Assembly (NCBI GenBank): GCA_040954595.2
Contig: CM082581.2
Coordinates: 1,604,699 to 1,668,698, forward strand
Source of the DNA: Balanoglossus misakiensis
Taxonomy: Eukaryota; Animalia; Hemichordata
Direction: 5' to 3'
DNA length: 64,000 nt
Numbering within the stretch: position 1 is the stretch's first letter; each line of letters starts with the position of its first letter. The notes beneath the pieces were generated by a model. It saw nothing but the letters and a program-made list of their open reading frames with translations. It did no database searches and was not told the origin of the DNA. Shown here piece after piece: positions 1 to 34,300 of the stretch. The position numbers were made by a program, and so were the translations under genes.

Positions 1-3000
1 TCAAAATTAATGGGCAGAACACTGTCCACTACGGCCTGGTTATTGTGTGCTCTGGTTAATGTTGACGCAAAGGTTGACGCCACCAAACACTCAAAATCAA
101 TGGGCAGCATACTGTCCACTATGGCCTGGTTACTGTGTGCTCTGGTTAATGTTGACGCAAAGGTTGACCCCACCAAACACTCAAAATTAATGGGCAGAAC
201 ACTGTCCACTATGGCCTGGTTACTGTGTGCTCTGGTTAATGTTGACGCAAAGGTTGACCCCACCAAACACTCAAAATTAATGGGCAGCACACTGTCCACT
301 ATGGCCTGGTTACTGTGTGCTCTGGTTAATGTTGACGCAAAGGTTGACCCCACCAAACACTCAAAATTAATGGGCAGAACACTGTCCACTACAGCCTGGT
401 TACTGTGTGCTCTGGTTAATGTTGACGCAAAGGTTGACCCCACCAAACACTCAAAATTAATGGGCAGAACACTGTCCACTACGGCCTGGTTATTGTGTGC
501 TCTGGTTAATGTTGACGCAAAGGTTGACCCCACCAAACACTCAAAATTAATGGGCAGAACACTGTCCACTACGGCCTGGTTACTGTGTGCTCTGGTTAAT
601 GTTGACGCAAAGGTTGACCCCACCAAACACTCAAAATTAATGGGCAGAACACTGTCCACTATGGCCTGGTTACTGTGTGCTCTGGTTAATGTTGACGCAA
701 AGGTTGACCCCACCAAACACTCAAAATTAATGGGCAGCACACTGTCCACTATGGCCTGGTTACTGTGTGCTCTGGTTAATGTTGACGCAAAGGTTGACCC
801 CACCAAACACTCAAAATTAATGGGCAGAACACTGTCCACTACGGCCTGGTTACTGTGTGCTCTGGTTAATGTTGACGCAAAGGTTGACCCCCACCAAACA
901 CTCAAAATTAATGGGCACGATACTGGCCACTCTGGCCTAGTTAATGTTGACGCAAAGGTTGACCCCACCAAACACTCAAAATTAATGGGCACGATACTGG
1001 CCACTCTGGCCTAGTTAATGTTGACGCAAAGGTTGACCCCACCAAACACTCAAAATTAATGGGCACGATACTGGCCACTCTGGCCTAGTTAATGTTGACG
1101 GAAAGGTTGACCCCACCAAACACTCAAAATTAATGGGCACGATACTGGCCACTCTGGCCTAGTTAATGTTGACGCAAAGGTTGACCCCACCAAACACTCA
1201 AAATTAATGGGCAGCACACTGTCCACTATGGCCTGGTTACTGTGTGCTCTGGTTAATGTTGACGCAAAGGTTGACCCCACCAAACACTCAAAATTAATGG
1301 GCAGAACACTGTCCACTACGGCCTGGTTACTGTGTGCTCTGGTTAATGTTGACGCAAAGGTTGACCCCACCAAACACTCAAAATTAATGGGCAGCACACT
1401 GTCCACTATGGCCTGGTTACTGTGTGCTCTGGTTAATGTTGACGCAAAGGTTGACCCCACCAAACACTCAAAATTAATGGGCAGGATACTGTCCACTACG
1501 GCCTGGTTACTGTGTGCTCTGGTTAATGTTGACGCAAAGGTTGACCCCACCAAACACTCAAAATTAATGGGCAGAACACTGTCCACTACGGCCTGGTTAC
1601 TGTGTGCTCTGGTTAATGTTGACGCAAAGGTTAACCCCACCAAACACTCAAAATTAATGGGCAGAACACTGTCCAATATGGCCTGGTTACTGTGTGCTCT
1701 GGTTAATGTTGACACAAAGGTTGACCCCACCAAACACTCAAAATTAATGGGCAGCACACTGTCCATTATGGCCTGGTTACTGTGTGCTCTGGTTAATGTT
1801 GACGCAAAGGTTGACCCCACCAAACACTCAAAATTAATGGGCAGAACACTGTCCACTACGGCCTGGTTACTGTGTGCTCTGGTTAATGTTGACGCAAAGG
1901 TTGACCCCACCAAACACTCAAAATTAATGGGCAGAACACTGTCCACTATGGCCTGGTTACTGTGTGCTCTGGTTAATGTTGACGCAAAGGTTGACCCCAC
2001 CAAACACTCAAAATTAATGGGCAGAACACTGTCCACTACGGCCTGGTTACTGTGTGCTCTGGTTAATGTTGACGCAAAGGTTGACCCCACCAAACACTCA
2101 AAATTAATGGGCAGAACACTGTCCACTACGGCCTGGTTATTGTGTGCTCTGGTTAATGTTGACGCAAAGGTTGACCCCACCAAACACTCAAAATTAATGG
2201 GCAGAACACTGTCCACTACGGCCTGGTTACTGTGTGCTCTGGTTAATGTTGACGCAAAGGTTGACCCCACCAAACACTCAAAATTAATGGGCAGAACACT
2301 GTCCACTACGGCCTGGTTACTGTGTGCTCTGGTTAATGTTGACGCAAAGGTTGACCCCACCAAACACTCAAAATTAATGGGCAGAACACTGTCCACTACG
2401 GCCTGGTTACTGTGTGCTCTGGTTAATGTTGACGCAAAGGTTGACCCCACCAAACACTCAAAATTAATGGGCAGCACACTGTCCACTATGGCCTGGTTAC
2501 TGTGTGCTCTGGTTAATGTTGACGCAAAGGTTGACCCCACCAAACACTCAAAATTAATGGGCAGAACACTGTCCACTACGGCCTGGTTACTGTGTGCTCT
2601 GGTTAATGTTGACGCAAAGGTTGACCCCACCAAACACTCAAAATTAATGGGCAGAACACTGTCCACTATGGCCTGGTTACTGTGTGCTCTGGTTAATGTT
2701 GATGCAAAGGTTGACCCCACCAAACACTCAAAATTAATGGGCAGCACACTGTCCACTATGGCCTGGTTACTGTGTGCTCTGGTTAATGTTGACGCAAAGG
2801 TTGACCCCACCAAACACTCAAAATTAATGGGCAGAACACTGTCCACTACGGCCTGGTTACTGTGTGCTCTGGTTAATGTTGACGCAAAGGTTGACCCCCA
2901 CCAAACACTCAAAATTAATGGGCACGATACTGGCCACTCTGGCCTGGTTAATGTTGACGCAAAGGTTGACCCCACCAAACACTCAAAATTAATGGGCACG

Positions 3001-4870
3001 ATACTGGCCACTCTGGCCTAGTTAATGTTGACGCAAAGGTTGACCCCACCAAACACTCAAAATTAATGGGCACGATACTGGCCACTCTGGCCTAGTTAAT
3101 GTTGACGCAAAGGTTGACCCCACCAAACACTCAAAATTAATGGGCACGATACTGGCCACTCTGGCCTAGTTAATGTTGACGCAAAGGTTGACCCCACCAA
3201 ACACTCAAAATTAATGGGCACGATACTGGCCACTCTGGCCTAGTTAATGTTGACGCAAAGGTTGACCCCACCAAACACTCAAAATTAATGGGCAGAACAC
3301 TGTCCACTACGGCCTGGTTACTGTGTGCTCTGGTTAATGTTGACGCAAAGGTTGACCCCACCAAACACTCAAAATTAATGGGCAGAACACTGTCCACTCG
3401 ACCTGGTTACTGTGTGCTCTGGTTAATGTTGACGCAAAGGTTGACCCCACCAAACACTCAAAATTAATGGGCAGAACACTGTCCACTACGGCCTGGTTAC
3501 TGTGTGCTCTGGTTAATGTTGACGCAAAGGTTGACCCCACCAAACACTCAAAATTAATGGGCAGCACACTGTCCACTATGGCCTGGTTACTGTGTGCTCT
3601 GGTTAATGTTGACGCAAAGGTTGACCCCACCAAACACTCAAAATTAATGGGCAGAACACTGTCCACTACGGCCTGGTTACTGTGTGCTCTGGTTAATGTT
3701 GACGCAAAGGTTGACCCCCATCAAACACTCAAAATTAATGGGCACGATACTGGCCACTCTGGCCTGGTTACTGTGTGCTCTGGTTAATGTTGACGCAAAG
3801 GTTGACCCCACCAAACACTCAAAATTAATGGGCAGAACACTGTCCACTACGGCCTGGTTACTGTGTGCTCTGGTTAATGTTGACGCAAAGGTTGACCCCA
3901 CCAAACACTCAAAATTAATGGGCAGAACACTGTCCACTATGGCCTGGTTACTGTGTGCTCTGGTTAATGTTGACGCAAAGGTTGACCCCACCAAACACTC
4001 AAAATTAATGGGCAGAACACTGTCCACTACGGCCTGGTTACTGTGTGCTCTGGTTAATGTTGACGCAAAGGTTGACCCCACCAAACACTCAAAATTAATG
4101 GGCAGAACACTGTCCACTACGGCCTGGTTACTGTGTGCTCTGGTTAATGTTGACGCAAAGGTTGACCCCACCAAACACTCAAAATTAATGGGCAGAACAC
4201 TGTCCACTACGGCCTGGTTACTGTGTGCTCTGGTTAATGTTGACGCAAAGGTTGACCCCACCAAACACTCAAAATTAATGGGCAGAACACTGTCCACTAC
4301 GGCCTGGTTACTGTGTGCTCTGGTTAATGTTGACGCAAAGGTTGACCCCACCAAACACTCAAAATTAATGGGCAGAACACTGTCCACTATGGCCTGGTTA
4401 CTGTGTGCTCTGGTTAATGTTGACGCAAAGGTTGACCCCACCAAACACTCAAAATTAATGGGCAGAACACTGTCCACTACTGCCTGGTTACTGTGTGCTC
4501 TGGTTAATGTTGACGCAAAGGTTGACCCCACCAAACACTCAAAATTAATGGGCAGAACACTGTCCACTACGGCCTGGTTACTGTGTGCTCTGGTTAATGT
4601 TGACGCAAAGGTTGACCCCACCAAACACTCAAAATTAATGGGCAGAACACTGTCCACTACGGCCTGGTTACTGTGTGCTCTGGTTAATGTTGACGCAAAG
4701 GTTGACCCCACCAAACACTCAAAATTAATGGGCAGCACACTGTCCACTATGGCCTGGTTACTGTGTGCTCTGGTTAATGTTGACGCAAAGGTTGACCCCA
4801 CCAAACACTCAAAATTAATGGGCAGAACACTGTCCACTACGGCCTGGTTACTGTGTGCTCTGGTTAATGT
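1..4870. repeat. Tandem array of 90-bp monomers with blocks of a 74-bp deletion variant; continues past the left window edge
   Basis: Unit ggttaatgttgacgcaaaggttgaccccaccaaacactcaaaattaatgggcagaacactgtccactayggcctggttactgtgtgctct repeats with period 90; 74-bp units (ggcacgatactggccactctggcctag) at ~865-1160 and ~2871-3240. Confidence 0.98.
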
Positions 4871-5100
4871 TAATGGTAGGTCGTGGCTGTCTCATTTCAG
4901 GGATTTGTGGACTAAATGTCAATCTTTGTACTATTCGTACATGAAACTTTTCTTTCAAATACAACTTACAGACCAACATAGACAGTCATGCTTATATAAG
5001 TATGACTATCTATTAAAGTAACATTCATATCATGATTGTTGTTTTACACTGTGTTTTCAAAGTAATTGTTGCAGTAAACCAATTGCCTTGCTTGGAAATA

Positions 5101-5914: not shown

Positions 5915-6435
5915 CTACAAAGAAGGAACATGGATTGGATTAAAACAATGTACGTTCAGTAAAATTGAAAGTATTGTCATTTCTTTTAATCGTGAATTTT
6001 GGGATTATCTTGTGTACGTACAAGATGAATCTGTGATAAAATAAAGGCGTCACCTTGCTTGCTTTTGAAATACAAGGCCATTAATTTAGTTGATAATAGA
6101 AGAAACCTGCTGACTCAGCATGGTTCACCAATGGTTTGTCTATGGACAAAAACCTTAAAGAAATTTATCTCAAAATAGAGCATTGTAATCACACAATTTT
6201 ATTTGACCAATGAATTTATATTTACTAGACTGAGCTATGTGTAAAATATCGTGAAAATGACAATAGTAGAAGTTTGTTTTCTAGCAATTATCAATGTAAT
6301 CCTATGAGAAAAAGACACCTGAGATTAAAAGGTCATTCCAAAAATTTATCCGGAATTCTGAAATAAGTTCGGAATGTGTTAAATGTGAAAATAGTGACTT
6401 GAAGTTATGTTGCAAGTGACTTGTTTATGTCTCAC

Positions 6436-6564
6436 CTTTGCATGCTGTTCCATTCACATCTGGTTCAAATCCCACCAAACATGCACACTGATAGTCACCA
6501 TCTCTATTTTCACAGACTTGATTGATTCCACACCGTGCCACCAATGTACTACATTCATTGATAT
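6436..6564 (-). pseudogene. Exon: Ca-binding EGF
   Basis: catttcag|...AAAG|gtgaga; DINECSTLVARCGINQVCENRDGDYQCACLVGFEPDVNGTACK; 129 bp, phase 1-1. Confidence 0.9.
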
Positions 6565-7041
6565 CTGAAATGTTATTCATCAAGATATGATCAAAATCCC
6601 ACAGGTCCGCTGGTAAATTCAGACCAACAAGTTTAGCTGGGAACCACCAGACCAACAGGAAATTTTCACAAACAAATTTTCGCGAACTATGCAAGAGCCA
6701 AAAAAAAAAGACATTTTTGCGTAAAAAACTATTTTCAGTGATAACAATGTAGTGAAATACGAGAACATGAAAATTAATCGTCTCATAACAGTTTCTGCTT
6801 TTGATATCGCAAAAAATTTCTTTGTCGCGAAAATTTCCTGTTTTACAGTAATCAATGAAAAATAAAATTACGAAAATCATGAAATTTCTGACAGCCATAG
6901 ATTTGCATGGCATGAACTGTATGTCCTATCAGCATGTAGTTTAGGTGACATTTATGATAAATAGTCAAATTACTGGAGTGATCGATTACGGTACCTCATA
7001 AGCAGACAACCACATGAAGACCAATCTTGATGTGAACTTAC

Positions 7042-20129: not shown

Positions 20130-23100
20130 CTGAGTTTGGATTGACTACTGTGTTACCACTGAAATTTCTCATAGCAATGTTCTTTCAATTTCGAGTCTTT
20201 GCAATGTTGTTGACTCCGACCATATTCCTGTTTCAATAGAGGTTCATTTCAACACTTCTGCGGATGAAAGCTTCAGCAGTAGTTCCTTCAAGCAATGTAA
20301 TTTTCGAGTTGATTGGAAAAAATTGTCACAGCAGAATATATCCGCCTACACCGGTTGTACCAAAGCCAAGATTGATAAGATTAATTTATCCGAAGAGTTA
20401 TTCTGCACTAATGTGAACTGTACAGACCCTTCGCATTTACAGGCAATTGATACTTGTTATAGTAGTATTGTGGACGCATTGAATTGTGCTGCAAAAGATA
20501 CCATTAGACGTAAGTTTCACCAGAAAGTTCATGTTGTGCCTGGCTGGAACGATTTTGTAAAAGAAAGTCACGACTATGCCCGTTCCATGTTTTTATTATG
20601 GGTTAATGTGGGTTAACCTAAACAAGGCCCGCATTTTGAAACCATGAAATCTTCCAGAGCTCGTTTTTAGTATGCTTTACGTGCTTGTAAAAAGATTGAG
20701 AATCAAAATAGGGCTGACAAGATGGCTGATAATTTACGCTGCCACAAACAGAACGACTTCTGGGAGGAAGTCAGAAAGCAAACTAGCAGAAAAACGCCGC
20801 TTTCTGACACTGTAGGTGGAGCGACTGGTGAGAGTGAAATTGCAATTATGTGGCACAAGCATTTCAGTGATATTTTGAATTCTGTCCAGGCTCAGACTGG
20901 TAAAAATGACATCGAGGAGAAAATGAAGTATGTTAAATTTTCTTCTGATATGTATGTTTCTGAAGACGAAGTAATTTCTGCTATACATAAGTTACCTGAT
21001 GGTAAGACAGCTGGCATTGACAATATTTTAGCTGAGCACCTCAAATTCTCAGACTCCTCTATTTTACCCTTTTTGACTTGTTGTATTAATGCAATGATTG
21101 TTCATGGTTACCTGCCAACTGAGGCTATCAATGTTAATTTAGTTCCAATTATTAAGGATAAAACTAAGCTTTGTAGTGATGCCAGTAACTACCGGCCGAT
21201 AGCACTAGCAACTGTTTTCTCTAAAGTTTTTGAGCATATTTTACTTTCTCGTTGTGAGGAGTTTCTTACCTCTCATTATTTACAATTTGGTTTCAAGCGA
21301 GAACATTCAACTGACCTGTGTTTATTTGCATTTAAAGAAATCATTAGCTACTACACCAGCAATGGAAGACCAGTGTTTACTTGTTTTCTGGATGCTTCAA
21401 AAGCTTTTGACAGAGTTAATCACTTTAAACTGGTTATAATTAACAAGCACATCGACAGGAATGTTCCCTTGTATGCTGTACGAATTTTATATTAATGGTA
21501 CAGAAATCAATTGTTTACTGTGTTGTGGGGTAATGAAACCTCAGAGTTGTTTTCTGTTTCTAACGGTGTAAGACAAGGGGGGGGGTACTCTCTCCCTATC
21601 TTTTTAATGTCTACATTGATGATATTATCAATGCACTCTGTAAAGCCAAAGTTAGCTGTACCATGTGTGGTGTCAGCGCTAACACTTTAGGTTACGCTGA
21701 CGACATGACTCTACTCAGTCCAAGTATTAAGGGTCTACGCCGTCTTCTTAGAATTTGTGAAATTTATGGCAAGGATTATGATATCATTTATAATTCTAGT
21801 AAAACTGTGTGCATGCTTTTTAATGGGAAGAATATGAGCGTTCAAAGAATTCCTTCGGTTAAACTTAATGACATCACTTTAAAGTTTGTACCTGTACACA
21901 CCTATCTGGGCCATGTTATATCTTGTGATGGTTGTGATAATGAAGATATTGAACGACAGAGAAGAGCATTTTGTGTAAGAGCAAACATGCTATTGAGACA
22001 TTTTCAACATTGTAGTCAAGATGTGAAGAAAGTTTTATTTTTGGCATATTGTTGTAATATTTACTGTTGCAGTTTGTGGGCATCCTTTAAAGTTAAACCG
22101 ATGAAAAAATTTAAAACTATGTACAATAATGTTTGCAGAAGATTTCTCGGTCTTCCGCCATTTTGCTGTGCATCGGGTATGTTTGCTACAAACCATGTAC
22201 ATGTATTGTCACTTGGTGAAGTTTTTAGACGCAATATGTACAGTTTTAAGATGGGTCCCTGGGATCTTTTTGCTCGTTGCTGTGGGCCTTTATAGGACAT
22301 TACACCCCGATTTGGACTAAGCCGTTTTCAGAGTCTAACAAGGGGCTGGTAACTAGTTGAAAATCTGCACGATTATGTGCACACCCCCTGTCCGAGTATG
22401 TTTACGGCAGCTACCACCCGGCCATAGGCCGCCACGCTAATACGGCAAAGCAGCGGTCAGCGATAGCGTGCGCGTCCTGTAACCACAGTAACTGGATCGA
22501 ACGCTAAAAATCCAATGTTTTGTACACAGAGATTTTGTACCGTTCACGAAAATCCCTAAGGCTTTTTTCATAGGCCACGTACGCCAGTCAAATTTGACCT
22601 GCTTGTTGAGAACGCACTTCCGCACAGTGTGACGGATCGTTTTTTCGGTTTTCGTCGTGCTAAGAAGCGATACCGGTGGAAGAGTGCGTCCAAAAACACC
22701 CAAAATCGATGACTTTTTCAGGTGTGGTACGGGTATGCTGAAATCTTAGGATACAACGATAATATTCGAAAACAAAATCCGTCACGATCTTCCCTGGTTC
22801 AAGCAACTAATGAATACGTATCAAGTTCGTTTTTGAGGTCACGGAATAAAAAGCCTTAGGCTTTTGAAATTTGACCTAGCTAATTTTCATATCAATGGCG
22901 TCAGGGGGCGCGCGCTCACAATCGTGCAGATTTTCAACTAGTTACCAGCCCCTTGTTAGACTCTGAAAACGGCTTAGTCCAAATCGGGGTGTAATGTCCT
23001 ATAAAGGCCCATAGCAACGAGCAAAAAGATCCCAGGGACCCATCTTAAGCGTAGACTCGAAAATTCTTCTAATGTTTTACTTGATGCGATCTGTTCATCA

Positions 23101-23272
23101 GATAGAGCGACTGACAGCATATTTTTCAAACATTGGCGAAAGCAATTGTATATCATGTAAGTTTTTTTTGTGTGTGTGTCTCAGTGTCAGATTATTATTA
23201 TTGTTTTTTTTTCTTCTCTCTTTTGGGTATATGGACTTTTTTTAAAGTCTGAAATAAAGAATTGTTATTATT
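20130..23272 (+). mobile_element. 5'-truncated, degenerate non-LTR retrotransposon (APE-RT ORF2, RTE-X-like)
   Basis: APE C-terminus WIDYCVTT...SDHIPV (20137-20235); RT motifs YRPIAL, QFGFK, LDASKAFDRV, QGG, YADD; stops at 20614, ~20668, 21493 and frameshift in the G-run ~21577; ORF end at 23160, AATAAA ~23253. Confidence 0.9.
22250..23044. mobile_element. 795-bp non-autonomous DNA transposon with 125-bp TIRs and TTAA TSD (Kolobok-like GA...TC termini)
   Basis: TTAA 22246-22249 and 23045-23048; TIRs 22250-22374 and 22920-23044 with one mismatch seen; removal restores LINE frame YSFK|RRLENSSN...LYIM*. Confidence 0.92.
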
Positions 23273-26200
23273 TGTTAGCTGTTGCCATTCAAATGTGTCT
23301 ACGCAAACCCGGCTACACTGGCAGTGGGCTTTGACTCTAAGTCGCTAATGTTGTGGGAGGTTTCATTAGCATTGTAGTCACATGTAGTGGATAGTAGTTT
23401 GGGAAATTGCCTGAAATACGTCAGCAGACCAGTGATTTTCTTGCACGAAGGGAGTTTGGTACCAGCAATAATCAGAGATCAGGCTTCGTTGCCGTTCAAA
23501 AGTTCCTACTTCAGTCGTGATGTTGCAACTGGACGTTCAGTATGGGGGTCGGCCCGCAGGTGGCCGTGTGGGTTATCAGGTCACCCGTAACGGCACGCAG
23601 CTACATGCAGCTGTATGGGACCAAAATAATACACCCGATTCGGGGGTCACCTGTGACACCTGCGTAACTCAATAATTATGTGCATGCGTAATTGTGGGGG
23701 CAATGAAAGGGGTGGTAGCGTGGTATTTGTTGCACATGGATCAATATGAAGTCCGATTTTCCCGTCAAGTTGTGGGCGACCTTATGTGACCTTTCACCTA
23801 CTTTTGCTTAGTGAGCATCTACAGAAGATGCATGCAGCTTTGGCTTGGGGGGGGGGGGGCATATACGGATGGGACCATAATGATATACCAAAGGCGGGGT
23901 CACCTGTTGCACCTGCCTAAGTCATTGATTTTGTACATTTAATTGGACACTAACCAACAGGGCGATAGGTGTGGTTTTTGTTCCACAGGGACGAATGTAA
24001 GTGTCAGTTGGTTTTTGCCCAAATGTATAAGGTGATTTTGATGACCTCTGTCATACAGTGCCATATCTCATCCCGTTGTACAGGTGCAGCTTTGGTATTT
24101 GGAGGGATGAAACTATCATGAAATGCCAAATACAGGGGGATACCTTTGACACCTGCCATGATTTTTTTCAAAAATCGACGAAATTTTGAGATTTTGCAAA
24201 GTCGAAAATTTGTCATTTTTTGATGATTTTCACCCGTCTTTTTTCAAAAATCGACGAAGTTTTGAGATTTTGCAAAAGAGGAAAATTTGTCATTTTTTGA
24301 TGATTTTCAACAATTTTTTTAAAAAATCGACGAAAATTTGAGATTTTGCAGTAAAAAATTTGTAATTTTTTGATGATTTTCACCGATGATTTTTTTCAAA
24401 ATTGACGAAATTTTGAGATTTTGCAGTCGAAAATTTGTAATTTTTTGATGATTTTCCCCCATGATTTTTTTCAAAAATCGACGAAATTTTGAGATTTTGC
24501 AAAGTCGAAAATTTGTCATTTTTTGATGATTTTCACCCATGATTTTCTTCAAAAATCGACGAAATTTTGAGATTTTGCAAAGTCGAAAATTTGTCATTTT
24601 TTGATGATTTTCACCCAATGTTTTTTTTTCAAAAATGGACGAACCCATGATTTTTTTCAAAATCGACGAAATTTTGAGATTTTGCAAAGTCGAAAATTTG
24701 TCATTGTCATGATGATTTTCAACCATGATTGTTTTCAAAAATTGACGAAATTTTGAGATTTTGCAGTCAAAAATTTGTCATTTTTTGATGATTTTCACCC
24801 ATGATTTTTTTTCACAAATCGACGAAATTTTGAGATTTTGCAGTCGTAAATTTGTCATTTTTTAATGATTTTCTGGATTAACTGGATCGAACGCTAAAAA
24901 TCCAATGTTTTGTACACAGAGATTTTGTACCGTTCACGAAAATCCCTAAGGCTTTTTTCATAGGCCACGTACGCCAGTCAAATTTGACCTGCTTGTTGAG
25001 AACGCACTTCCGCACAGTGTGACGGATCGTTTTTTCGGTTTTCGTCGTGCTAAGAAGCGATACCGGTGGAAGAGTGCGTCCAAAAACACCCAAAATCGAT
25101 GACTTTTTCAGGTGTGGTACGGGTATGCTGAAATCTTAGGATACAACGATAATATTCGAAAACAAAATCCGTCACGATCTTCCCTGGTTCAAGCAACTAA
25201 TGAATACGTATCAAGTTCGTTTTTGAGGTCACGGAATAAAAAGCCTTAGGCTTTTGAAATTTGACCTAGCTAATTTTCATATCAATGGCGTCAGGGGGCG
25301 CGCGCTCACAATCGTGCAGATTTTCAACTAGTTACCAGCCCCTTGTTAGACTCTGAAAACGGCTTAGTCCAAATCGGGGTGTAATGTCCTATAAAGGCCC
25401 ATAGCAACGAGCAAAAAGATCCCAGGGACCCATCTTAAGCGTAGACTCGAAAATTCTTCTAATGTTTTACTTGATGCGATCTGTTCATCAGATAGAGCGA
25501 CTGACAGCATATTTTTCAAACATTGGCGAAAGCAATTGTATATCATGTAAGTTTTTTTTGTGTGTGTGTCTCAGTGTCAGATTATTATTATTGTTTTTTT
25601 TTCTTCTCTCTTTTGGGTATATGGACTTTTTTTAAAGTCTGAAATAAAGAATTGTTATTATTTGTTAGCTGTTGCCATTCAAATGTGTCTACGCAAACCC
25701 GGCTACACTGGCAGTGGGCTTTGACTCTAAGTCGCTAATGTTGTGGGAGGTTTCATTAGCATTGTAGTCACATGTAGTGGATAGTAGTTTGGGAAATTGC
25801 CTGAAATACGTCAGCAGACCAGTGATTTTCTTGCACGAAGGGAGTTTGGTACCAGCAATAATCAGAGATCAGGCTTCGTTGCCGTTCAAAAGTTCCTACT
25901 TCAGTCGTGATGTTGCAACTGGACGTTCAGTATGGGGGTCGGCCCGCAGGTGGCCGTGTGGGTTATCAGGTCGCCCGTAACGGCACGCAGCTACATGCAG
26001 CTGTATGGGACCAAAATAATACACCCGATTCGGGGGTCACCTGTGACACCTGCGTAACTCAATAATTATGTGCATGCGTAATTGTGGGGGCAATGAAAGG
26101 GGTGGTAGCGTGGTATTTGTTGCACATGGATCAATATGAAGTCCGATTTTCCCGTCAAGTTGTGGGCGACCTTATGTGACCTTTCACCTACTTTTGCTTA

Positions 26201-26610
26201 GTGAGCATCTACAGAAGATGCATGCAGCTTTGGCTTGGGGGGGGGCATATACGGATGGGACCATAATGATATACCAAAGGCGGGGTCACCTGTTGCACCT
26301 GCCTAAGTCATTGATTTTGTACATTTAATTGGACACTAACCAACAGGGCGATAGGTGTGGTTTTTGTTCCACAGGGACGAATGTAAGTGTCAGTTGGTTT
26401 TTGCCCAAATGTATAAGGTGATTTTGATGACCTCTGTCATACAGTGCCATATCTCATCCCGTTGTACAGGTGCAGCTTTGGTATTTGGAGGGATGAAACT
26501 ATCATGAAATGCCAAATACAGGGGGATACCTTTGACACCTGCCATGATTTTTTTCAAAAATCGACGAAATTTTGAGATTTTGCAAAGTCGAAAATTTGTC
26601 ATTTTTTGAT
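22489..26610. repeat. Tandem segmental duplication, period 2390 bp (copy 2 continues after the Ngaro insertion to ~31875)
   Basis: 22489-24224 matches 24879-26610 almost perfectly (one A/G change at 23583/25973, G-run length difference); duplicated spurious ORFs in the track are offset by 2390. Confidence 0.95.
24157..24873. repeat. 78-bp satellite, short block within duplicate copy 1
   Basis: ~9 monomers of the same family as 31305-64000. Confidence 0.95.
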
Positions 26611-26710
26611 AATTACTACTATGAATGAACAAGCGACACACACACAGGATTGGGTGAAAGTGGGGTGTGTTTTATTAATTGAATGTGGTGACACACTCCA
26701 CACCGACCAA
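26611..26710 (-). repeat. Ngaro split direct repeat B2 (3' terminus)
   Basis: Identical to 26921-27020; AATAAA on minus strand at 26671-26676. Confidence 0.95.
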
Positions 26711-26726
26711 CGGGTGGGTAGGGTTG

Positions 26727-26920
26727 GGAAAAACGACACACGCACCAACTAATATGGCCAAGCCAAAAGACTGAGTGGCTGGGCGCCAAACAGAAAACTG
26801 CTACAGTACTAAAAAACCGCCAATTGGGAAAGCACCAATCACAGGGCCGGTAGCCCCCTTTGTAAACTGAGGGGCGCCCTCACAGTCCGTAATTAAACAT
26901 TTCTTAACAAGAAATAAACA
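26727..26920 (-). repeat. Ngaro split direct repeat A2
   Basis: Matches 31111-31304. Confidence 0.95.
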
Positions 26921-27020
26921 AATTACTACTATGAATGAACAAGCGACACACACACAGGATTGGGTGAAAGTGGGGTGTGTTTTATTAATTGAATGTGGTG
27001 ACACACTCCACACCGACCAA
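26921..27020 (-). repeat. Ngaro split direct repeat B1
   Basis: Identical to 26611-26710 and directly abuts A2. Confidence 0.95.
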
Positions 27021-27063
27021 CCAAAATCACCCAAACCCCTGTGAGTGAGTAGTAAAGGTTACT

Positions 27064-28083
27064 CTAGGAAAGGTTTCCATCACGAATTGCCCTACCCATA
27101 GAAGCAGTAACTTCTAATTTGTCAACCAAAGGTACTTTAATGTACTGACGGAAAGCATCACTGGCCCAATCACCATGCATACGAAGCATTTCTGGAGGGA
27201 TGCCGCAGTGGAATGCAAACGAACAACCTCCCCTGCGGAAGCTATGACCAGAAAAATACTGAGGGGAGAAACCGGCCAAGGAAACCAGCCGGGAAAGTGC
27301 TCCGGAAAAAACCCTGGCTGAAAGTGGGACAAGGCAACCTCCAGAAGGTACGACGAATGCAGGTGCAGAGGCCGGTGCTGGGATCAAAGAACACATTGAT
27401 TTAAAAGCTTTAACTGGGCAGAGTGGGGAACCAGGAATACAACAAATAGGGAGAAAATGCAAACGCTCCCCAAATTGAATAGTCTTACTATAACTAACAG
27501 TAACGACTAAGTAATGCTCAAAAACTCTAACTTTGTCCCTAGTCAAGTGCTTAGCACTGTCAAAGCTATGTGGACCTGGGGGTACTAAATTACTCTTCCT
27601 GAAAAAAACGAAAAAGGCAAGTAAGAAACATGCCCACAAAGCGGAGTGAACTGGTTTAGAAAGGTCTAAATACTTAAGAAATTTAAGTAACATCTGAGGT
27701 GTGATTGGGTGTTTTTGACAAGGCAATGTTGAAAGTTCTCTCTTAAGCGCTCTAACTGATAATTCAACGAGGAAATCTGAGATTGGTTCCACCGAAAACC
27801 CATTGTATGAAGCAAAACGCTTAAGACTGGTCTTGTAGTTGAGGAGTGTACCAAAGGCATGGATGCCACGTGCTAGAAACTCTAAGAAATTACAAATGGT
27901 GAGTGGGTCTAAAGGCAATGGTTTAACATTAAAGTATGTACAAAACAGAAAATATGACTTAATATGACTTCTGAAGTTCTGTGCTGTGCCGCTCGCGTAA
28001 GCTGAACGGCGACGGATGACTGATTGTTGGCAAAGTGTCCTCCACTGTCTGGTGCCAATAAGGTCGAGTCCTGTAGGAACAAA
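27064..28083 (-). CDS. Tyrosine recombinase (phage-integrase family) of the Ngaro element
   Basis: Catalytic R (FFRKSNL), K (YSKT), HxxR (GHSFRRGG), GDW, Y (RQYI); frame is open 55 codons upstream of the track's TTG start, back to the RT stop, including AYASGTAQNFRSHIKSYFLFC. Confidence 0.92.
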   Translation of the reverse strand, partial: FVPTGLDLIGTRQWRTLCQQSVIRRRSAYASGTAQNFRSHIKSYFLFCTYFNVKPLPLDPLTICNFLEFLARGIHAFGTLLNYKTSLKRFASYNGFSVEPISDFLVELSVRALKRELSTLPCQKHPITPQMLLKFLKYLDLSKPVHSALWACFLLAFFVFFRKSNLVPPGPHSFDSAKHLTRDKVRVFEHYLVVTVSYSKTIQFGERLHFLPICCIPGSPLCPVKAFKSMCSLIPAPASAPAFVVPSGGCLVPLSARVFSGALSRLVSLAGFSPQYFSGHSFRRGGCSFAFHCGIPPEMLRMHGDWASDAFRQYIKVPLVDKLEVTASMGRAIRDGNLS

Positions 28084-30231
28084 TCACCAATCATGAGTGA
28101 ATTCAAACAATGTGACATCGGCAAAAAATTCATCTAACATTTTACCTTTGCACAGGCTATGGAATTGTCTGCGATACTTATCGTCCAAATGCCACCTGCT
28201 CAAGCAGTCAGCCTGAGAGTTTGCTACTCCTGGGATGTGCATAGCTTTGATTTCTAATTGGTATTTAGCGCAGTAAAACAAAAGTTCTCTTGCGCAAGCA
28301 ACCATAAAATTGTCTTTACTGCGACCTGTATTAATTACTGAAACTGTAGCTTCATTGTCACATGCTACATTTAAACCAAGACCCTGCCAGCTGTGTCCCC
28401 ACAATTTGACAGCAACCACGACGGTAAGTAGTTCCAATGCTGAGATGTGCAACTCCTGGCTGGTGATACTTTCTGGAAATATTGCGTGAAAAAATCCAGA
28501 ATTTGTGATACCCCCGCAACCAGTAAGACATGCATCAGTGTGTAGGGGGACGATTGTTTTAAGTCTGTTGATTTGCGGTATCAGTGAGATGCCATTATAA
28601 GTAGGTAGGAATGTTATCCACCACAACAAGTCTTTTTTGAAGTGGCGGGTAAGACGTGTTTTATGATGATTGCGTTTCAGTCTGCGAAGCAGTGCTAACA
28701 TTCTTGTCACAAATAATCTCCCTGGTCTCACACAAGCCGCAATGAACATGAGTTTCCCGGTGATTGACTGAAGTTCCCGTTTCGTTGCCGTGCGTTTGTC
28801 CTTCCACTGGTCCAGAATAGATATAGTGTCCTCCAATCGCTCGCTGGTCACAAACATTGTCATTGTTTCCGAGTCAAAGCCGACTCCTAAGAAAGTCATA
28901 CGAGTGGTGGGCGGTACACTTTTTGCTACGTTCTCTTGTAAACCAAGTTCTTGTAGCAAATCACCTAATTTATTAAAGGAGTCTGATGCCCGAGTGGGTG
29001 AGTCAACCCCTCCAAAGTCATCCAAGTAATTGATGCTGGTGTAGCCTCGTTTCCGATGCAGGTAAGTTACAGCATTCGTTACCCGTTGACATGCCATTGC
29101 TGCGCTGCGAATCCCGAAAGGAAACACAATGTCAAAGTATAGATTGTCCTTCCATTCATAACCCAGAAGGTGATAGTCATGCGGGTCCACGTATAACTGT
29201 TTATAGGCCCGACTTAAGTCACGTTTAAACAACAAACACCCTTTTCCATAATTGCGTATCAAGGATGCAAACGTGTCGACTGTTGGGTATTTCAGGGAAT
29301 AGTCTTCCCCTAAATATGAGTTTGCAGGAATACCATCGTTCACTGAGTTGTCCGATGGAAAGCTGAGGTCTAGAATGATGCGTCGTTCGTCAGAGTCTTT
29401 CTTGCTAACAGTAGAGATAGGTGACACCGTAAGTGGTACGTTAAACGGATTTGAGGTAAATGGTCCGGCAGTAGCTCCCAGGAGGGATTCTTTGTCAATG
29501 AATCTGTCCACATGACTGCTGTAATCTAATGCTGACTTATGATTGTGTCCATGTGTAACAGGTAAGGTGTCTTTGATATAGCCTACAGGCCACCCAAATT
29601 CTAGGAATTCACAAATGCTGCTGTCGTTGTAGCCTTGAAGACGTTGTCTCCACACATTAACATTAAGTTTTGTAGGTACTGGAAACTTGAGGCCTTCATA
29701 ATTGTAAAGCCCTGATGTGTACACCAAATCATGTAAGTTCACCAAGTATTGCAAAGTGTGATCGGGAACAGCTTGCGATTGATGACTGTGCTTGATTGAT
29801 TCAGATGGCTGGTTTGCAGTTTTGTGAGCAGTCGTTACTGAAGCATGCGAGGCGTTGTCATGGGGCTGTATACCGCAAGCATTATCACGCTGGTAACAGG
29901 CCTTGACAGGTTGCTCCTGAGAAGCGGTGAGAAAAAGGCAGTTCCCTTGCATAACTGTTGTGTTGTGGGTCTCAGGAGTAGCGGAATTACGAGTACGTTG
30001 TTGCAAAACCGTAGAATAGCTGTTTTCATAACGATTGTCAATTGAAACTGTCGAGTGCTTAGTTCCGTTGCGAACATGCGATACCTGCTGAACGACATGA
30101 TTAGGTGTAATTGTTTGTGTTCGAGTATGTTGTTTACTTCTGCAGCGCCTGGCTGCTAGCGTCCGATGGCGTAGTAGGCGTTTTTGTTTGCTGCTCGCGA
30201 AAAGGACATCTGACGATAGGGTGCGGCGCAT
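28084..30231 (-). CDS. Reverse transcriptase-RNase H (DIRS1/Ngaro type), 715 aa, intact
   Basis: RIILDLSFP, KRDLSRAYKQL, PFGIRSA, YLDDF, FLG; RNase H TDAC...ISALELL...CDN...NSQADCLSR. Confidence 0.96.
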   Translation of the reverse strand: MRRTLSSDVLFASSKQKRLLRHRTLAARRCRSKQHTRTQTITPNHVVQQVSHVRNGTKHSTVSIDNRYENSYSTVLQQRTRNSATPETHNTTVMQGNCLFLTASQEQPVKACYQRDNACGIQPHDNASHASVTTAHKTANQPSESIKHSHQSQAVPDHTLQYLVNLHDLVYTSGLYNYEGLKFPVPTKLNVNVWRQRLQGYNDSSICEFLEFGWPVGYIKDTLPVTHGHNHKSALDYSSHVDRFIDKESLLGATAGPFTSNPFNVPLTVSPISTVSKKDSDERRIILDLSFPSDNSVNDGIPANSYLGEDYSLKYPTVDTFASLIRNYGKGCLLFKRDLSRAYKQLYVDPHDYHLLGYEWKDNLYFDIVFPFGIRSAAMACQRVTNAVTYLHRKRGYTSINYLDDFGGVDSPTRASDSFNKLGDLLQELGLQENVAKSVPPTTRMTFLGVGFDSETMTMFVTSERLEDTISILDQWKDKRTATKRELQSITGKLMFIAACVRPGRLFVTRMLALLRRLKRNHHKTRLTRHFKKDLLWWITFLPTYNGISLIPQINRLKTIVPLHTDACLTGCGGITNSGFFHAIFPESITSQELHISALELLTVVVAVKLWGHSWQGLGLNVACDNEATVSVINTGRSKDNFMVACARELLFYCAKYQLEIKAMHIPGVANSQADCLSRWHLDDKYRRQFHSLCKGKMLDEFFADVTLFEFTHDW

Positions 30232-31081
30232 GTTGACCCTTTGTTATGCAATGTAGACAGGCGTGCAACTTCTTACACTGTTTACCAGCTTGGGGGTCAT
30301 CATAAGGGCAAGTGCTTTTCCAATTCCACGAAAAGCATAAAAAGTTAAATTGATTGTTATGCTTGGGTTTATCTTGTTGTTGTTGTTGTTGTACCGAAAC
30401 ATTCGTGGTGTGCATAGGTGCCGTGGCCTTAAATGCCCAGTACGCTAGGTTGTCAAAACTATCACTCCAAGTAGCGTGGCCCATTTCTATCTTATGCAAT
30501 GCCTTTGCGTGGAACTCTCTGGTTTTCTCCCATCCGTACAATATCTTGTAGTTAATTAGGTCTTTTAGATGGGCGATCCTGTATTCTTTCTCTTCTACGG
30601 AGATCAACGCTGGTGTGTGAGTGATAATGGCGAGATAACCGGCGAGGAAATTGTCAAAGGACAAATTGTTGTAGTCAGTAGCTTGCGTTGACGGCATGAC
30701 GTCCACCATAATATTATGGGGCCACAGTGTGGGTCTTACTACGCGGTCCTGGGGCTTCGTAAACATGCCTGATTTGTGCTTACCGGAAGGTGCCTGAGCC
30801 AGAAAATCGTCTTCAGCAAATGGTAACCATTGTCTCATTCTGTCCTCTGACCTCCGTACCAGATCGTTGTCTCTCCGAAATTCATTCACGTCTACATCGT
30901 GGTGCAGGAGTGATGGGGTTTCTGCCAGACGACGCTGGGTGGAATGGTTACGTTGACGACTACTGCTACGAGTATCGCTTGATTGGACACGTAGGCCTTC
31001 GATTTCACGATCGACCTCCCGGATACTAGCTTCCAACTGCTCGATTGCTTCAGCGGCATGTTTCTTATTCCTACGAGGCAT
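30134..31081 (-). CDS. Gag-like ORF1 with N-terminal coiled coil and C-terminal Cys/His zinc-finger cluster
   Basis: ATG at 31081 (MPRRNKK); heptad-like segment IEQLEASIREVDREIEGL; CFSWNWKSTC...CKKLHACLHC...HPIVRC; overlaps RT ORF by 98 bp. Confidence 0.85.
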   Translation of the reverse strand: MPRRNKKHAAEAIEQLEASIREVDREIEGLRVQSSDTRSSSRQRNHSTQRRLAETPSLLHHDVDVNEFRRDNDLVRRSEDRMRQWLPFAEDDFLAQAPSGKHKSGMFTKPQDRVVRPTLWPHNIMVDVMPSTQATDYNNLSFDNFLAGYLAIITHTPALISVEEKEYRIAHLKDLINYKILYGWEKTREFHAKALHKIEMGHATWSDSFDNLAYWAFKATAPMHTTNVSVQQQQQQDKPKHNNQFNFLCFSWNWKSTCPYDDPQAGKQCKKLHACLHCITKGQHAPHPIVRCPFREQQTKTPTTPSDASSQALQK

Positions 31082-31110
31082 GTTTGGATATGATTTCACA
31101 GAAGACGGCA

Positions 31111-31304
31111 GGAAAAACGACACACGCACAAACTAATATGGCCAAGCCAAAAGACTGAGTGGCTGGGCGCCAAACAGAAAACTGCTACAGTACTAAAAAA
31201 CCGCCAATTGGGAAAGCACCAATCACAGGGCCGGTAGCCCCCTTTGTAAACTGAGGGGCGCCCTCACAGTCCGTAATTAAACATTTCTTAACAAGAAATA
31301 AACA
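31111..31304 (-). repeat. Ngaro split direct repeat A1 (5' terminus, probable promoter)
   Basis: Matches A2; contains CCAAT/ATTGG motifs and hairpin tgaggg-gcg-ccctca; lies 30 bp upstream of the gag ATG. Confidence 0.9.
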
Positions 31305-34300
31305 GATTTTCACCCGTCTTTTTTCAAAAATCGACGAAATTTTGAGATTTTGCAAAAGAGGAAAATTTGTCATTTTTTGATGATTTTCAACAATTTTTTT
31401 AAAAAATCGACGAAAATTTGAGATTTTGCAGTAAAAAATTTGTAATTTTTTGATGATTTTCACCGATGATTTTTTTCAAAATTGACGAAATTTTGAGATT
31501 TTGCAGTCGAAAATTTGTAATTTTTTGATGATTTTCCCCCATGATTTTTTTCAAAAATCGACGAAATTTTGAGATTTTGCAAAGTCGAAAATTTGTCATT
31601 TTTTGATGATTTTCACCCAATGTTTTTTTTTCAAAAATGGACGAACCCATGATTTTTTTCAAAATCGACGAAATTTTGAGATTTTGCAAAGTCGAAAATT
31701 TGTCATTGTCATGATGATTTTCAACCATGATTTTTTTCAAAAATTGACGAAATTTTGAGATTTTGCAGTCAAAAATTTGTCATTTTTTGATGATTTTCAC
31801 CCATGATTTTTTTTCACAAATCGACGAAATTTTGAGATTTTGCAGTCGTAAATTTGTCATTTTTTAATGATTTTCCTCCATGATTTTTTTTCAAAAATCG
31901 ACGAAATTTTGAGATTTTGCAAAGTCTAAAATTTGTCATTTTTTGATGATTTTCACCCATGTCTTTTTTCAAAAATCGACGAAATTTTGAGATTTTGCAA
32001 AGAGGAAAATTTGTCATTTTTTGATGATTTTCAACAATGATTTTTTTTCAAAATTTTGCAGTAAAAAATTTGTAATTTTTTGATGATTTTCACCGATGAT
32101 TTTTTTCAAAAATCGACGAAATTTTGAGATTTTGCAAAGTCGAAAATTTGTAATTTTTTGATGATTTTCACCCATGATTTTCTTCAAAAATCGACGAAAT
32201 TTTGAGATTTTGCAAAGTCGAAAATTTGTCATTTTTTGATGATTTTCACCCAATGTTTTTTTTTCAAAAATGGACGAACCCATGATTTTTTTCAAAATCG
32301 ACGAAATTTTGAGATTTTGCAAAGTCGAAAATTTGTCATTGTCATGATGATTTTCAACCATGATTGTTTTCAAAAATTGACGAAATTTTGAGATTTTGCA
32401 GTCAAAAATTTGTCATTTTTTGATGATTTTCACCCATGATTTTTTTTCACAAATCGACGAAATTTTGAGATTTTGCAGTCGTAAATTTGTCATTTTTTAA
32501 TGATTTTCCTCCATGATTTTTTTTCAAAAATCGACGAAATTTTGAGATTTTGCAAAGTCTAAAATTTGTCATTTTTTGATGATTTTCACCCATGATTTTT
32601 TTTCAAAAATCGACGAAATTTTGAGATTTTGCAAAGTCGAAAATTTGTCATTTTTTGATGATTTTCACCCATGATTTTTTCAAAAAATTGACGAAATTTT
32701 GAGATTTTGCAAAGTCGAAAATTTGTCATTTTTTGATGATTTTCACCCATGATTTTTTTCAAAAATCGACGAAATGTTGAGATTTTGCAAAGTCGAAAAT
32801 TTGTCATTTTTTGATGATTTTCACCCAATGGTTTTTTTCAAAATCGACGAAATTTTGGGATTTTGCAAAGTCGAAAATTTGTCATTTTTTGATGATTTTC
32901 ACCCATGATTTTTTTCAAAAATCGACGAAATTGTGAGATTTTGCAAAGTCAAAAATTTGTCATTTTTTGATGATTTTCACCCATGATTTTTTCAAAAATT
33001 GACGAAATTTTGAGATTTTGCAAAGTCGAAAATTTGTCATTTTTTGATGATTTTCACCCATGATTTTTTTCAAAAATCGACGAAATGTTGAGATTTTGCA
33101 AAGTCGAAAATTTGTCATTTTTTGATGATTTTCACCCATGATTTTTTTCAAAAATTGACGAAATGTTGAGATTTTGCAAAGTCAAAAATTTGTCATTTTT
33201 TGATGATTTTCACCCATGTTTTTTTTTTAAAAATCGACGAACCTATGATTTTTTTCAAAATCGACGAAATTTTGAGATTTTGCAAAGTCGAAAATTTTGT
33301 CATTTTTTGATGATTTTCACCCATGATTTTTTCAAAAATTGACGAAATTTTGAGATTTTGCAAAGTCGAAAATTTGTCATTTTTTGATGATTTTTACCCA
33401 TGATTTTTTTCAAAAATCGACGAAATTGTGAGATTTTGCAAAGTCAAAAATTTGTCATTTTTTGATGATTTTCACCCATGATTTTTTCAAAAATTGACGA
33501 AATTTTGAGATTTTGCAAAGTCGAAAATTTGTCATTTTTTGATGATTTTCACCCATGATTTTTTTCAAAAATCGACGAAATGTTGAGATTTTGCAAAGTC
33601 GAAAATTTGTAATTTTTTGATGATTTTCACCCATGATTTTTTTCAAAAATTGACGAAATGTTGAGATTTTGCAAAGTCGAAAATTTGTCATTTTTTGATG
33701 ATTTTCACCCATGATTTTTTTCAAAAATCGACGAAATGTTGAGATTTTGCAAAGTCGAAAATTTGTCATTTTTTGATGATTTTCACCCATGATTTTTTTT
33801 CAAAAATCGACGAAATTTTGAGATTTTGCATAGACGAAAATTTGTCATTTTTTGATGATTTTCACCCATGATTTTTTCAAAAATTGACGAAATTTTGAGA
33901 TTTTGCAAAGTCGAAAATTTGTCATTTTTTGATGATTTTCACCCATGATTTTTTTCAAAAATCGACGAAATTGTGAGATTTTGCAAAGTCAAAAATTTGT
34001 CATTTTTTGATGATTTTCACCCATGTTTTTTTTTTAAAAATCGACGAACCTATGATTTTTTTCAAAATCGACGAAATTTTGAGATTTTGCAAAGTCGAAA
34101 ATTTTGTCATTTTTTGATGATTTTCACCCATGATTTTTTCAAAAATTGACGAAATTTTGAGATTTTGCAAAGTCGAAAATTTGTCATTTTTTGATGATTT
34201 TCACCCATGATTTTTTTCAAAAATCGACGAAATGTTGAGATTTTGCAAAGTCGAAAATTTGTCATTTTTTGATGATTTTCACCCATGATTTTTTTCAAAA

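Follow-up and report, generated by a model that had tools for sequence, protein, structure and literature searches.

How does a retrotransposon make its recombinase when the frame that encodes it opens directly behind the stop codon of the preceding gene? The question is raised by a complete Ngaro-type tyrosine-recombinase (YR) retrotransposon of 4694 bp, on the minus strand at 26611..31304 (ends fixed against a duplicated empty site) of a 64,000-nucleotide window of the hemichordate Balanoglossus misakiensis (contig CM082581.2; coordinates are those of the window). Its YR frame of 339 amino acids (aa) (28083-27064, minus) starts right behind the stop of the reverse transcriptase (RT) gene (TGA 28086-28084), and the first in-frame ATG is codon 131 (27691..27693, minus). 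Translation of the recombinase very probably uses a spliced RNA in which the first 99 gag codons are fused to the entire recombinase frame. This reading, and the absence of an early YR start, come from an original prediction made on this locus, whose coordinates (ATG, donor, TGA, acceptor, exon lengths and 434-aa frame) all proved exact on recomputation; the splice itself has gained support from conservation of the sites across families, from public gene models and from an exact intron loss. The parts of the predicted splice are the following.

30778..30786, minus: phase-1 donor CCG/GTAAGC (GT 30783-30782), in a Gly codon just before the Gag core
30784..31081, minus: predicted coding exon 1, 99 codons plus 1 nucleotide (nt) from ATG 31081, common to Gag and the predicted Gag(N)-YR
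28071..30783, minus: predicted GT-AG intron of 2713 nt, containing the Gag core and all of RT/RNase H
28071..28083, minus: pyrimidine tract with a phase-1 CAG acceptor, separating the RT stop from the YR head
27064..28070, minus: predicted exon 2, the whole Cre-like tyrosine recombinase, recognized by sequence, profile and structure comparison

The acceptor reads TTTGTTCCTACAG/GA, with its AG at 28072-28071 and the CAG 13 nt past the RT stop, and the joined exons (298 + 1007 = 1305 nt) encode 434 aa with zero internal stops. Scored with simple weight matrices, the donor ranks first among the 295 GTs and the acceptor second among the 270 AGs of the whole element, and both are identical in all three full copies of the element's family.

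Could the recombinase not simply begin at its own ATG? The YR frame carries the catalytic set R162, K200, H280, R283, W306 and Y314, and a structure model built from 97 homologues has a mean predicted local distance difference test score (pLDDT) of 93.8, its first helix beginning at residue 5, the first codon past the acceptor. The best fold match is the Cre recombinase of phage P1 (Foldseek E 2.1e-11, template modelling (TM) score 0.70, across the whole YR), and the YR profile matches Cre 33-177, with profile positions 20-119 corresponding to Cre 33-131, which we take to be the N-terminal DNA-binding domain of Cre. The enzyme has the traits of a Cre-like recombinase, an N-terminal helical DNA-binding domain together with the R-K-H-R-H/W-Y catalytic residues. 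A start at M131 would lose the region matching Cre 33-131, and YR therefore cannot start at its own ATG here; the frame in this element is without a start codon before its first domain. The likeness to Cre resides in the fold over the whole YR and in the R-K-H-R-W-Y set, with an identity of just 17-19%, and Cre, in contrast, starts at a codon of its own and lacks a Gag leader.

A search of the genome gave at least 119 YR matches, and 60 loci with upstream DNA were sorted into 20 families, 16 of which have YR identities of 31-79% (median 40%), with two well-supported groups in a YR tree confined to this genome; L061, with its YR head deleted, was left out of the acceptor-region comparison. The best AG within 150 nt before a conserved YR anchor is a phase-1 CAG, 56-74 nt upstream of that anchor, in 18 of the 20 families, the exceptions being L037, where it is second best, and the one L080 copy, which has no scored site there. 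Phase-1 sites scoring above 3 occur in the two 30-nt bins at this position in 19 families, as against at most seven in any other bin, and nine control windows gave phase-1 best sites in 4-14 of the 20 families at mean scores of 1.8-4.1, compared with 5.9 at the acceptor. The same holds for metagenome contigs. Eighty loci were taken from them, of which 72 were usable (eight had no anchor or upstream DNA) and made up 65 families; the best acceptor was in phase 1 in 55 of these, 46 of them with the site 45-90 nt upstream, whereas seven control windows gave 13-37 of 65 (mean scores of 0.9-3.3 against 5.0). The residues encoded at the acceptor vary (TG, SD, AA, SE, AG) while the CAG is kept.

On the donor side, 18 families of this genome have a G/GT at the Gly just before the Gag core, and in 15 of them no other donor of the frame scores higher, a tally (18/18 for GGT) which is partly circular, as are the in-genome ranks, because the donors were picked from ranked lists. 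A cleaner test employed profiles that begin behind the donor, and contigs from outside this genome, with 31 of 33 loci being used: the top donor among the 34-111 GTs of each gag frame was in phase 1 and within -150 to +30 nt of the start of the core in 25 of the 31 (21 of 26 without rows flagged as duplicates). Four of the 31 have a Ser codon at the best core-adjacent site, and hence retain GT without Gly. Within this genome a top donor score of at least 5 is reached by 11 of 18 gags, as opposed to none of 28 RT chunks and a single one of 16 YRs. The L058 and L082 families have a weak homologous donor (score 0.2-0.4). Both donor and acceptor are kept in copies and in related families, and this conservation, across families with a median YR identity of 40%, supports the splice.

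Further support for the splice comes from two sources, since public gene models hold the same join and two genomic copies have an exact loss of the intron. One of 120 listed YR homologues, the Ptychodera flava model XP_070567566.1, opens with a stretch alignable to the gag considered here (33%, E 2e-10; exon 1 is homologous to its residues 6-110). The stretch ends at the junction Gly and passes into YR, with a conserved Tyr 25 residues on, as in this element. XP_063442000.1 of Mytilus trossulus equals the Gag CAG2201812.1 at 119 of its first 120 residues and then turns to YR where that Gag reads Gly-Glu, as a phase-1 splice would give. By alignment, then, the Gag-N/YR join is present in RefSeq models of both an acorn worm and a mussel, and in the acorn worm it falls at the same Gly. 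Four of the seven clusters with named animal gene models contain a Gag-like or coiled-coil-like front. Those in Pecten and Argopecten are coiled-coil-like, but a Gag origin is not claimed for them, the likeness being too weak (E 0.01-0.05 for Pecten to Gag fronts); the Pecten N-terminus, used as a search query, matched itself only. Another candidate, P0348, was rejected, being a deletion that keeps the acceptor region.

The intron loss is seen in two short copies of the L035/L094 family, L098 and L099, where the match ends at the last base before the homologous donor and resumes at a CAG/ in the pol head, in phase 1 to the pol frame. What is absent is exactly GT...CAG, 805 nt, which the unspliced sisters L105 and L106 keep. 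The two copies share the join, which therefore reflects one event, and most likely it came from reverse transcription of a spliced RNA, in which case the donor would be in use; a deletion at a 2-nt AG microhomology is the rival explanation. The copies also point to a second acceptor in pol, whether real or cryptic, and most families have no clear pol acceptor.

The copies L098 (2336-4334), L099, L105, L106 and L107-L109 represent several lineages of short non-autonomous elements of the L035/L094 family, and in L099 a 121-bp unit that stems from the pol head is repeated in tandem about 16 times. Open frames above 400 aa were inspected as possible Gag(N)-YR in L059 and L061 and are RT-YR deletions or frameshifts, and C27:10013838, which starts near the acceptor, was set aside as an unrelated junction. 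A break at the donor in L082 is also no splice: it marks a 770-bp DNA transposon with 123-bp inverted ends (L082 2196-2986, oriented; also L080), exactly at the gag donor and with its target duplicated.

Several observations weigh against the splice as the source of the recombinase. Top donors are in phase 1 in 21 of 28 RT chunks, so that phase alone is weak, and one control window reached 14 of 20 and 37 of 65 phase-1 acceptors. An in-frame ATG stands 5-36 codons before the anchor in 7 of the 20 families. The position of the donor is not universal, that of the mussel lying about 110 residues before the Gag core. Two gene models, CAC5391973.1 and XP_078659994.1, join RNase H to YR and others begin inside YR, and the RefSeq joins may come from a predictor reading the same signals. 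As for L098 and L099, they join the donor to the pol head and not to YR, with the 2-nt AG microhomology at the join and other deletions in both copies. An intron-less Gag(N)-YR copy was found neither among the at least 119, at least 116 and at least 121 YR matches of the genome nor in eight DNA searches of it over seven families, these numbers being lower bounds.

What else might supply the recombinase? The explanation that survives best, albeit as a quite unlikely one, is a Pol-YR polyprotein, made by TGA readthrough here and by programmed -1 frameshifting in most relatives. YR does lie in frame directly behind the RT stop in this element, and -1 is the commonest relation elsewhere (12 of 17 families), a count that also tells against splicing and fits the published description, according to which, in the excerpt of PMC13003380 that cites Poulter and Butler 2015, a frameshift is probable. 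Yet, of 17 families, two have YR in frame 0 relative to RT (L047 and that of this element), 12 in -1 and three in +1, which would call for three different recoding events, and L035 does not permit the route, its RT stop and open YR frame being 46 nt apart. Readthrough, which the original prediction had named as the alternative, is permitted by the frame in just 2 of the 17 families with a usable RT end; this element is one of them, and for it alone readthrough may apply. No slippery heptamer was found at the RT/YR boundary in 19 rows, while the same scan picked up AAAAAAC where gag and pol overlap in the -1 frame (L044, L048 and L055), and gag and pol are in frame across one stop in five families (L043, L089, L046, L047, L050, L088). 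Such in-frame stops and slippery sites indicate that these elements can recode, which favours a polyprotein, but they also mean that such signals can be seen at the place where pol depends on recoding. The RT stop is directly followed by TTT, presumably not a leaky context. A polyprotein would moreover leave the conserved pyrimidine tract, the CAG, the strong gag donor and the gene models unexplained. From the variety of RT-YR frames and the lack of a slippery site, readthrough or -1 frameshifting is unlikely as the general route.

The gag/pol boundaries themselves suggest that readthrough and frameshifting coexist within a single superfamily. Over 20 loci the acceptors before pol were of mixed phase, with no general phase-1 site among them.

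Very unlikely, in turn, is that the YR acceptor is real but has another partner, whether a donor in a non-coding leader or elsewhere in gag, or that YR starts at an internal ATG on a transcript of its own. The seven families with an in-frame ATG shortly before the anchor would allow the latter, and the weak homologous donors of the L058 and L082 families, the mussel join at an earlier Gly and XP_071160915.1, in which another front precedes the same YR head, are in keeping with other donors. But in the element under study the next ATG, at codon 131, would delete the DNA-binding domain, 13 of the 20 families lack any ATG ahead of the anchor, phase conservation would be needless with a non-coding leader, and the P. 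flava model uses the same Gly as the one predicted here. Lastly, it is barely credible that the sites are unused by-products of protein conservation (Gly-Lys; Thr-Gly or Ser-Asp codons), for even though GGT codons bias GT to phase 1, as in the RT chunks, and G[KRE] is frequent enough before the Gag core (69/115 versus 114/745 windows) to be a protein motif, the acceptor residues vary around a kept CAG, GT persists in the Ser codon of four outside loci, and L098 and L099 have lost an intron exactly.

If splicing is the source of the recombinase, the unspliced RNA would be both genome and message for Gag and Pol, and removal of the 2.7-kb intron would yield a capped message with its first ATG opening the 434-aa Gag(N)-YR, which would keep the Cre-like DNA-binding and catalytic domains intact. 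The Gag front might then let YR assemble with Gag and the complementary DNA (cDNA), or reach the nucleus, much as the original prediction proposed that it could load the enzyme into the particle or nucleus. Less probably than the splice itself, it would act as a tether between YR and Gag or contain a nuclear signal (MPRRNKKH), and it may serve as a start codon only. The first 99 aa had been described as basic and coiled-coil: the first eight residues are indeed basic, but the whole is not (18 K+R versus 19 D+E), being neutral overall, coiled-coil-like by eye and widely different among families. Neither this Gag front nor that of Pecten had a usable match in the ESM Atlas, and Pfam found no named domain in the fronts, its weak coiled-coil or SAM-like matches falling under the cut-off. 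A helical motif, LR...L..V...L, drawn by eye from these sequences, occurs in 26 of 115 Gag fronts against a shuffled mean of 0.3; it is not claimed as a tether because it was drawn by eye and is absent from the bivalve fusion fronts. The gag fronts of the second group (L044, L050, L054, L055, L058, L079) seem by eye to have a short helical, SAM-like domain, and that of L088 has a weak Pfam match to SAM_KSR1 (E 0.013, under the cut-off).

A wider scheme can be put forward tentatively, as one that could well turn out otherwise. Animal Ngaro elements would splice in the manner of retroviruses from a single gag donor, with unspliced RNA for Gag, a conserved Gag(N)-YR splice and, in some families, a further one for Gag(N)-Pol. 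The common Gag front would be a tag for assembly, drawing the recombinase into the Gag/cDNA complex and perhaps influencing the choice of target. Retroviruses and errantiviruses use spliced RNA for env, and foamy viruses for pol. Ty1/Copia elements also make a spliced subgenomic RNA (PMC5580714). What these systems have in common with the scheme is a genome-length RNA accompanied by a spliced one that sets the amount of another protein, with a donor in or near gag. Copia splicing yields Gag alone, though, and env splicing the envelope, whereas the product predicted here is an integration enzyme fused to some 100-300 Gag residues, with RT skipped.

The element is thus of a known kind, and the splice route, which contradicts the stated conjecture of frameshifting, was not found in print: the available text of PMC7192593, PMC9341512, PMC6681497, PMC3783388, PMC9210276, PMC8547959, PMC3266345, PMC4495291, PMC13003380, PMC4157794 and PMC5580714 describes no gag-YR splice, and there may be an earlier mention elsewhere. 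For the expression of recombinases of the DIRS order, the Ngaro review offers just a probable frameshift. Were the splice real, Gag(N)-YR, and not the bare YR frame or Pol-YR, would be the protein to express for biochemistry and structure; a eukaryotic tyrosine recombinase would have a route to its cDNA that can be tested; a family present in many marine animals would have its annotation put right; and a retroelement would be seen to keep a functional intron over its own RT gene. As a lead only, the splice may bear on the report, in the excerpt of PMC8547959, that loss of ORF1 (open reading frame 1) changes the insertion preference of Ngaro in Cafeteria.

The remaining features of the element are these.

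31111..31304, minus: split direct repeat A1, 99% to A2, its start set by the empty-site comparison
30134..31081, minus: gag-like ORF1 of 315 aa, with a variable N-terminal part, a conserved core (KSG...WPH) and a C-terminal Cys/His motif
28084..30243, minus: pol ORF (RT and RNase H), 719 codons stop to stop, with RVT_1
26921..27021, minus: split direct repeat B1, by repeat comparison, with AATAAA at 26986-26981
26727..26920, minus: split direct repeat A2, B1/A2 forming a circle-type junction
26611..26711, minus: split direct repeat B2, by repeat comparison, with AATAAA at 26676-26671

Is it properly a Ngaro element? On the definitions of this superfamily, in the order DIRS, given in excerpts of PMC4157794, PMC9210276, PMC8547959 and PMC3783388, it is, by its repeats, its gene order, the lack of a methyltransferase and insertion without target duplication. 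Gag, RT/RNase H and YR follow in this order on one strand, and the split direct repeats are arranged A1...B1-A2-B2, the internal pair downstream of YR (A, 99% over 198 nt; B, 100% over 101 nt). The element ends are direct repeats and occur in none of the 25 longest inverted pairs, which sets the element apart from DIRS1-like ones with their inverted terminal repeats and internal complementary region. Pfam found RVT_1 (E 9.8e-6) as the sole domain in pol, and no methyltransferase, a trait of PAT and DIRS1; pol ends some 37 residues past the last RNase H motif with YR directly behind it, so that nothing PAT-like follows RNase H. Comparison of the filled site with the duplicated empty site reveals no target-site duplication. 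In departure from PMC13003380, in the available part of which YR overlaps RT/RH in the -1 frame and a programmed frameshift is conjectured, YR is here in frame 0 without overlap and with an acceptor matched to the gag donor. The overlap is not a strict criterion because PMC3783388, in excerpt, gives Ngaro YR as in the same frame or shifted. An SGNH hydrolase ORF is lacking here.

Pol overlaps gag by 110 nt (30243-30134) in the +1 frame, with an ATG as codon 5 of the pol frame, and neither a slippery site nor a good phase-1 acceptor for pol (best score 0.8) was found. A run of C in the 3' part of gag is 5, 6 and 7 long among the three copies.

Elsewhere in the genome, YRs of the L033 family form nearly identical tandem clusters about 320-360 kb apart on at least five contigs (C8, C13, C14, C16, C17), for example at C14:10119825, 10471988 and 10832709 and C16:10298358, 10651922 and 10975339, each with an L037-family fragment about 40 kb away, as giant repeated units.

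The host site of the element is the first units of a 78-bp satellite that occupies at least 28 kb (31305-59154). Window positions 22489-24524 and 24879-26614 plus 31305-31604 are a local duplication (99.7% over 1740 nt, spacing about 2390), which retains the empty insertion site in its first satellite unit, and the insertion therefore postdates the duplication, unless it was confined to one copy. The window also holds a 90-bp tandem array (1-4871), an EGF-like coding piece named by eye (6425-6925, minus) and a broken RT of the long interspersed nuclear element (LINE) type (20134-22295, plus).

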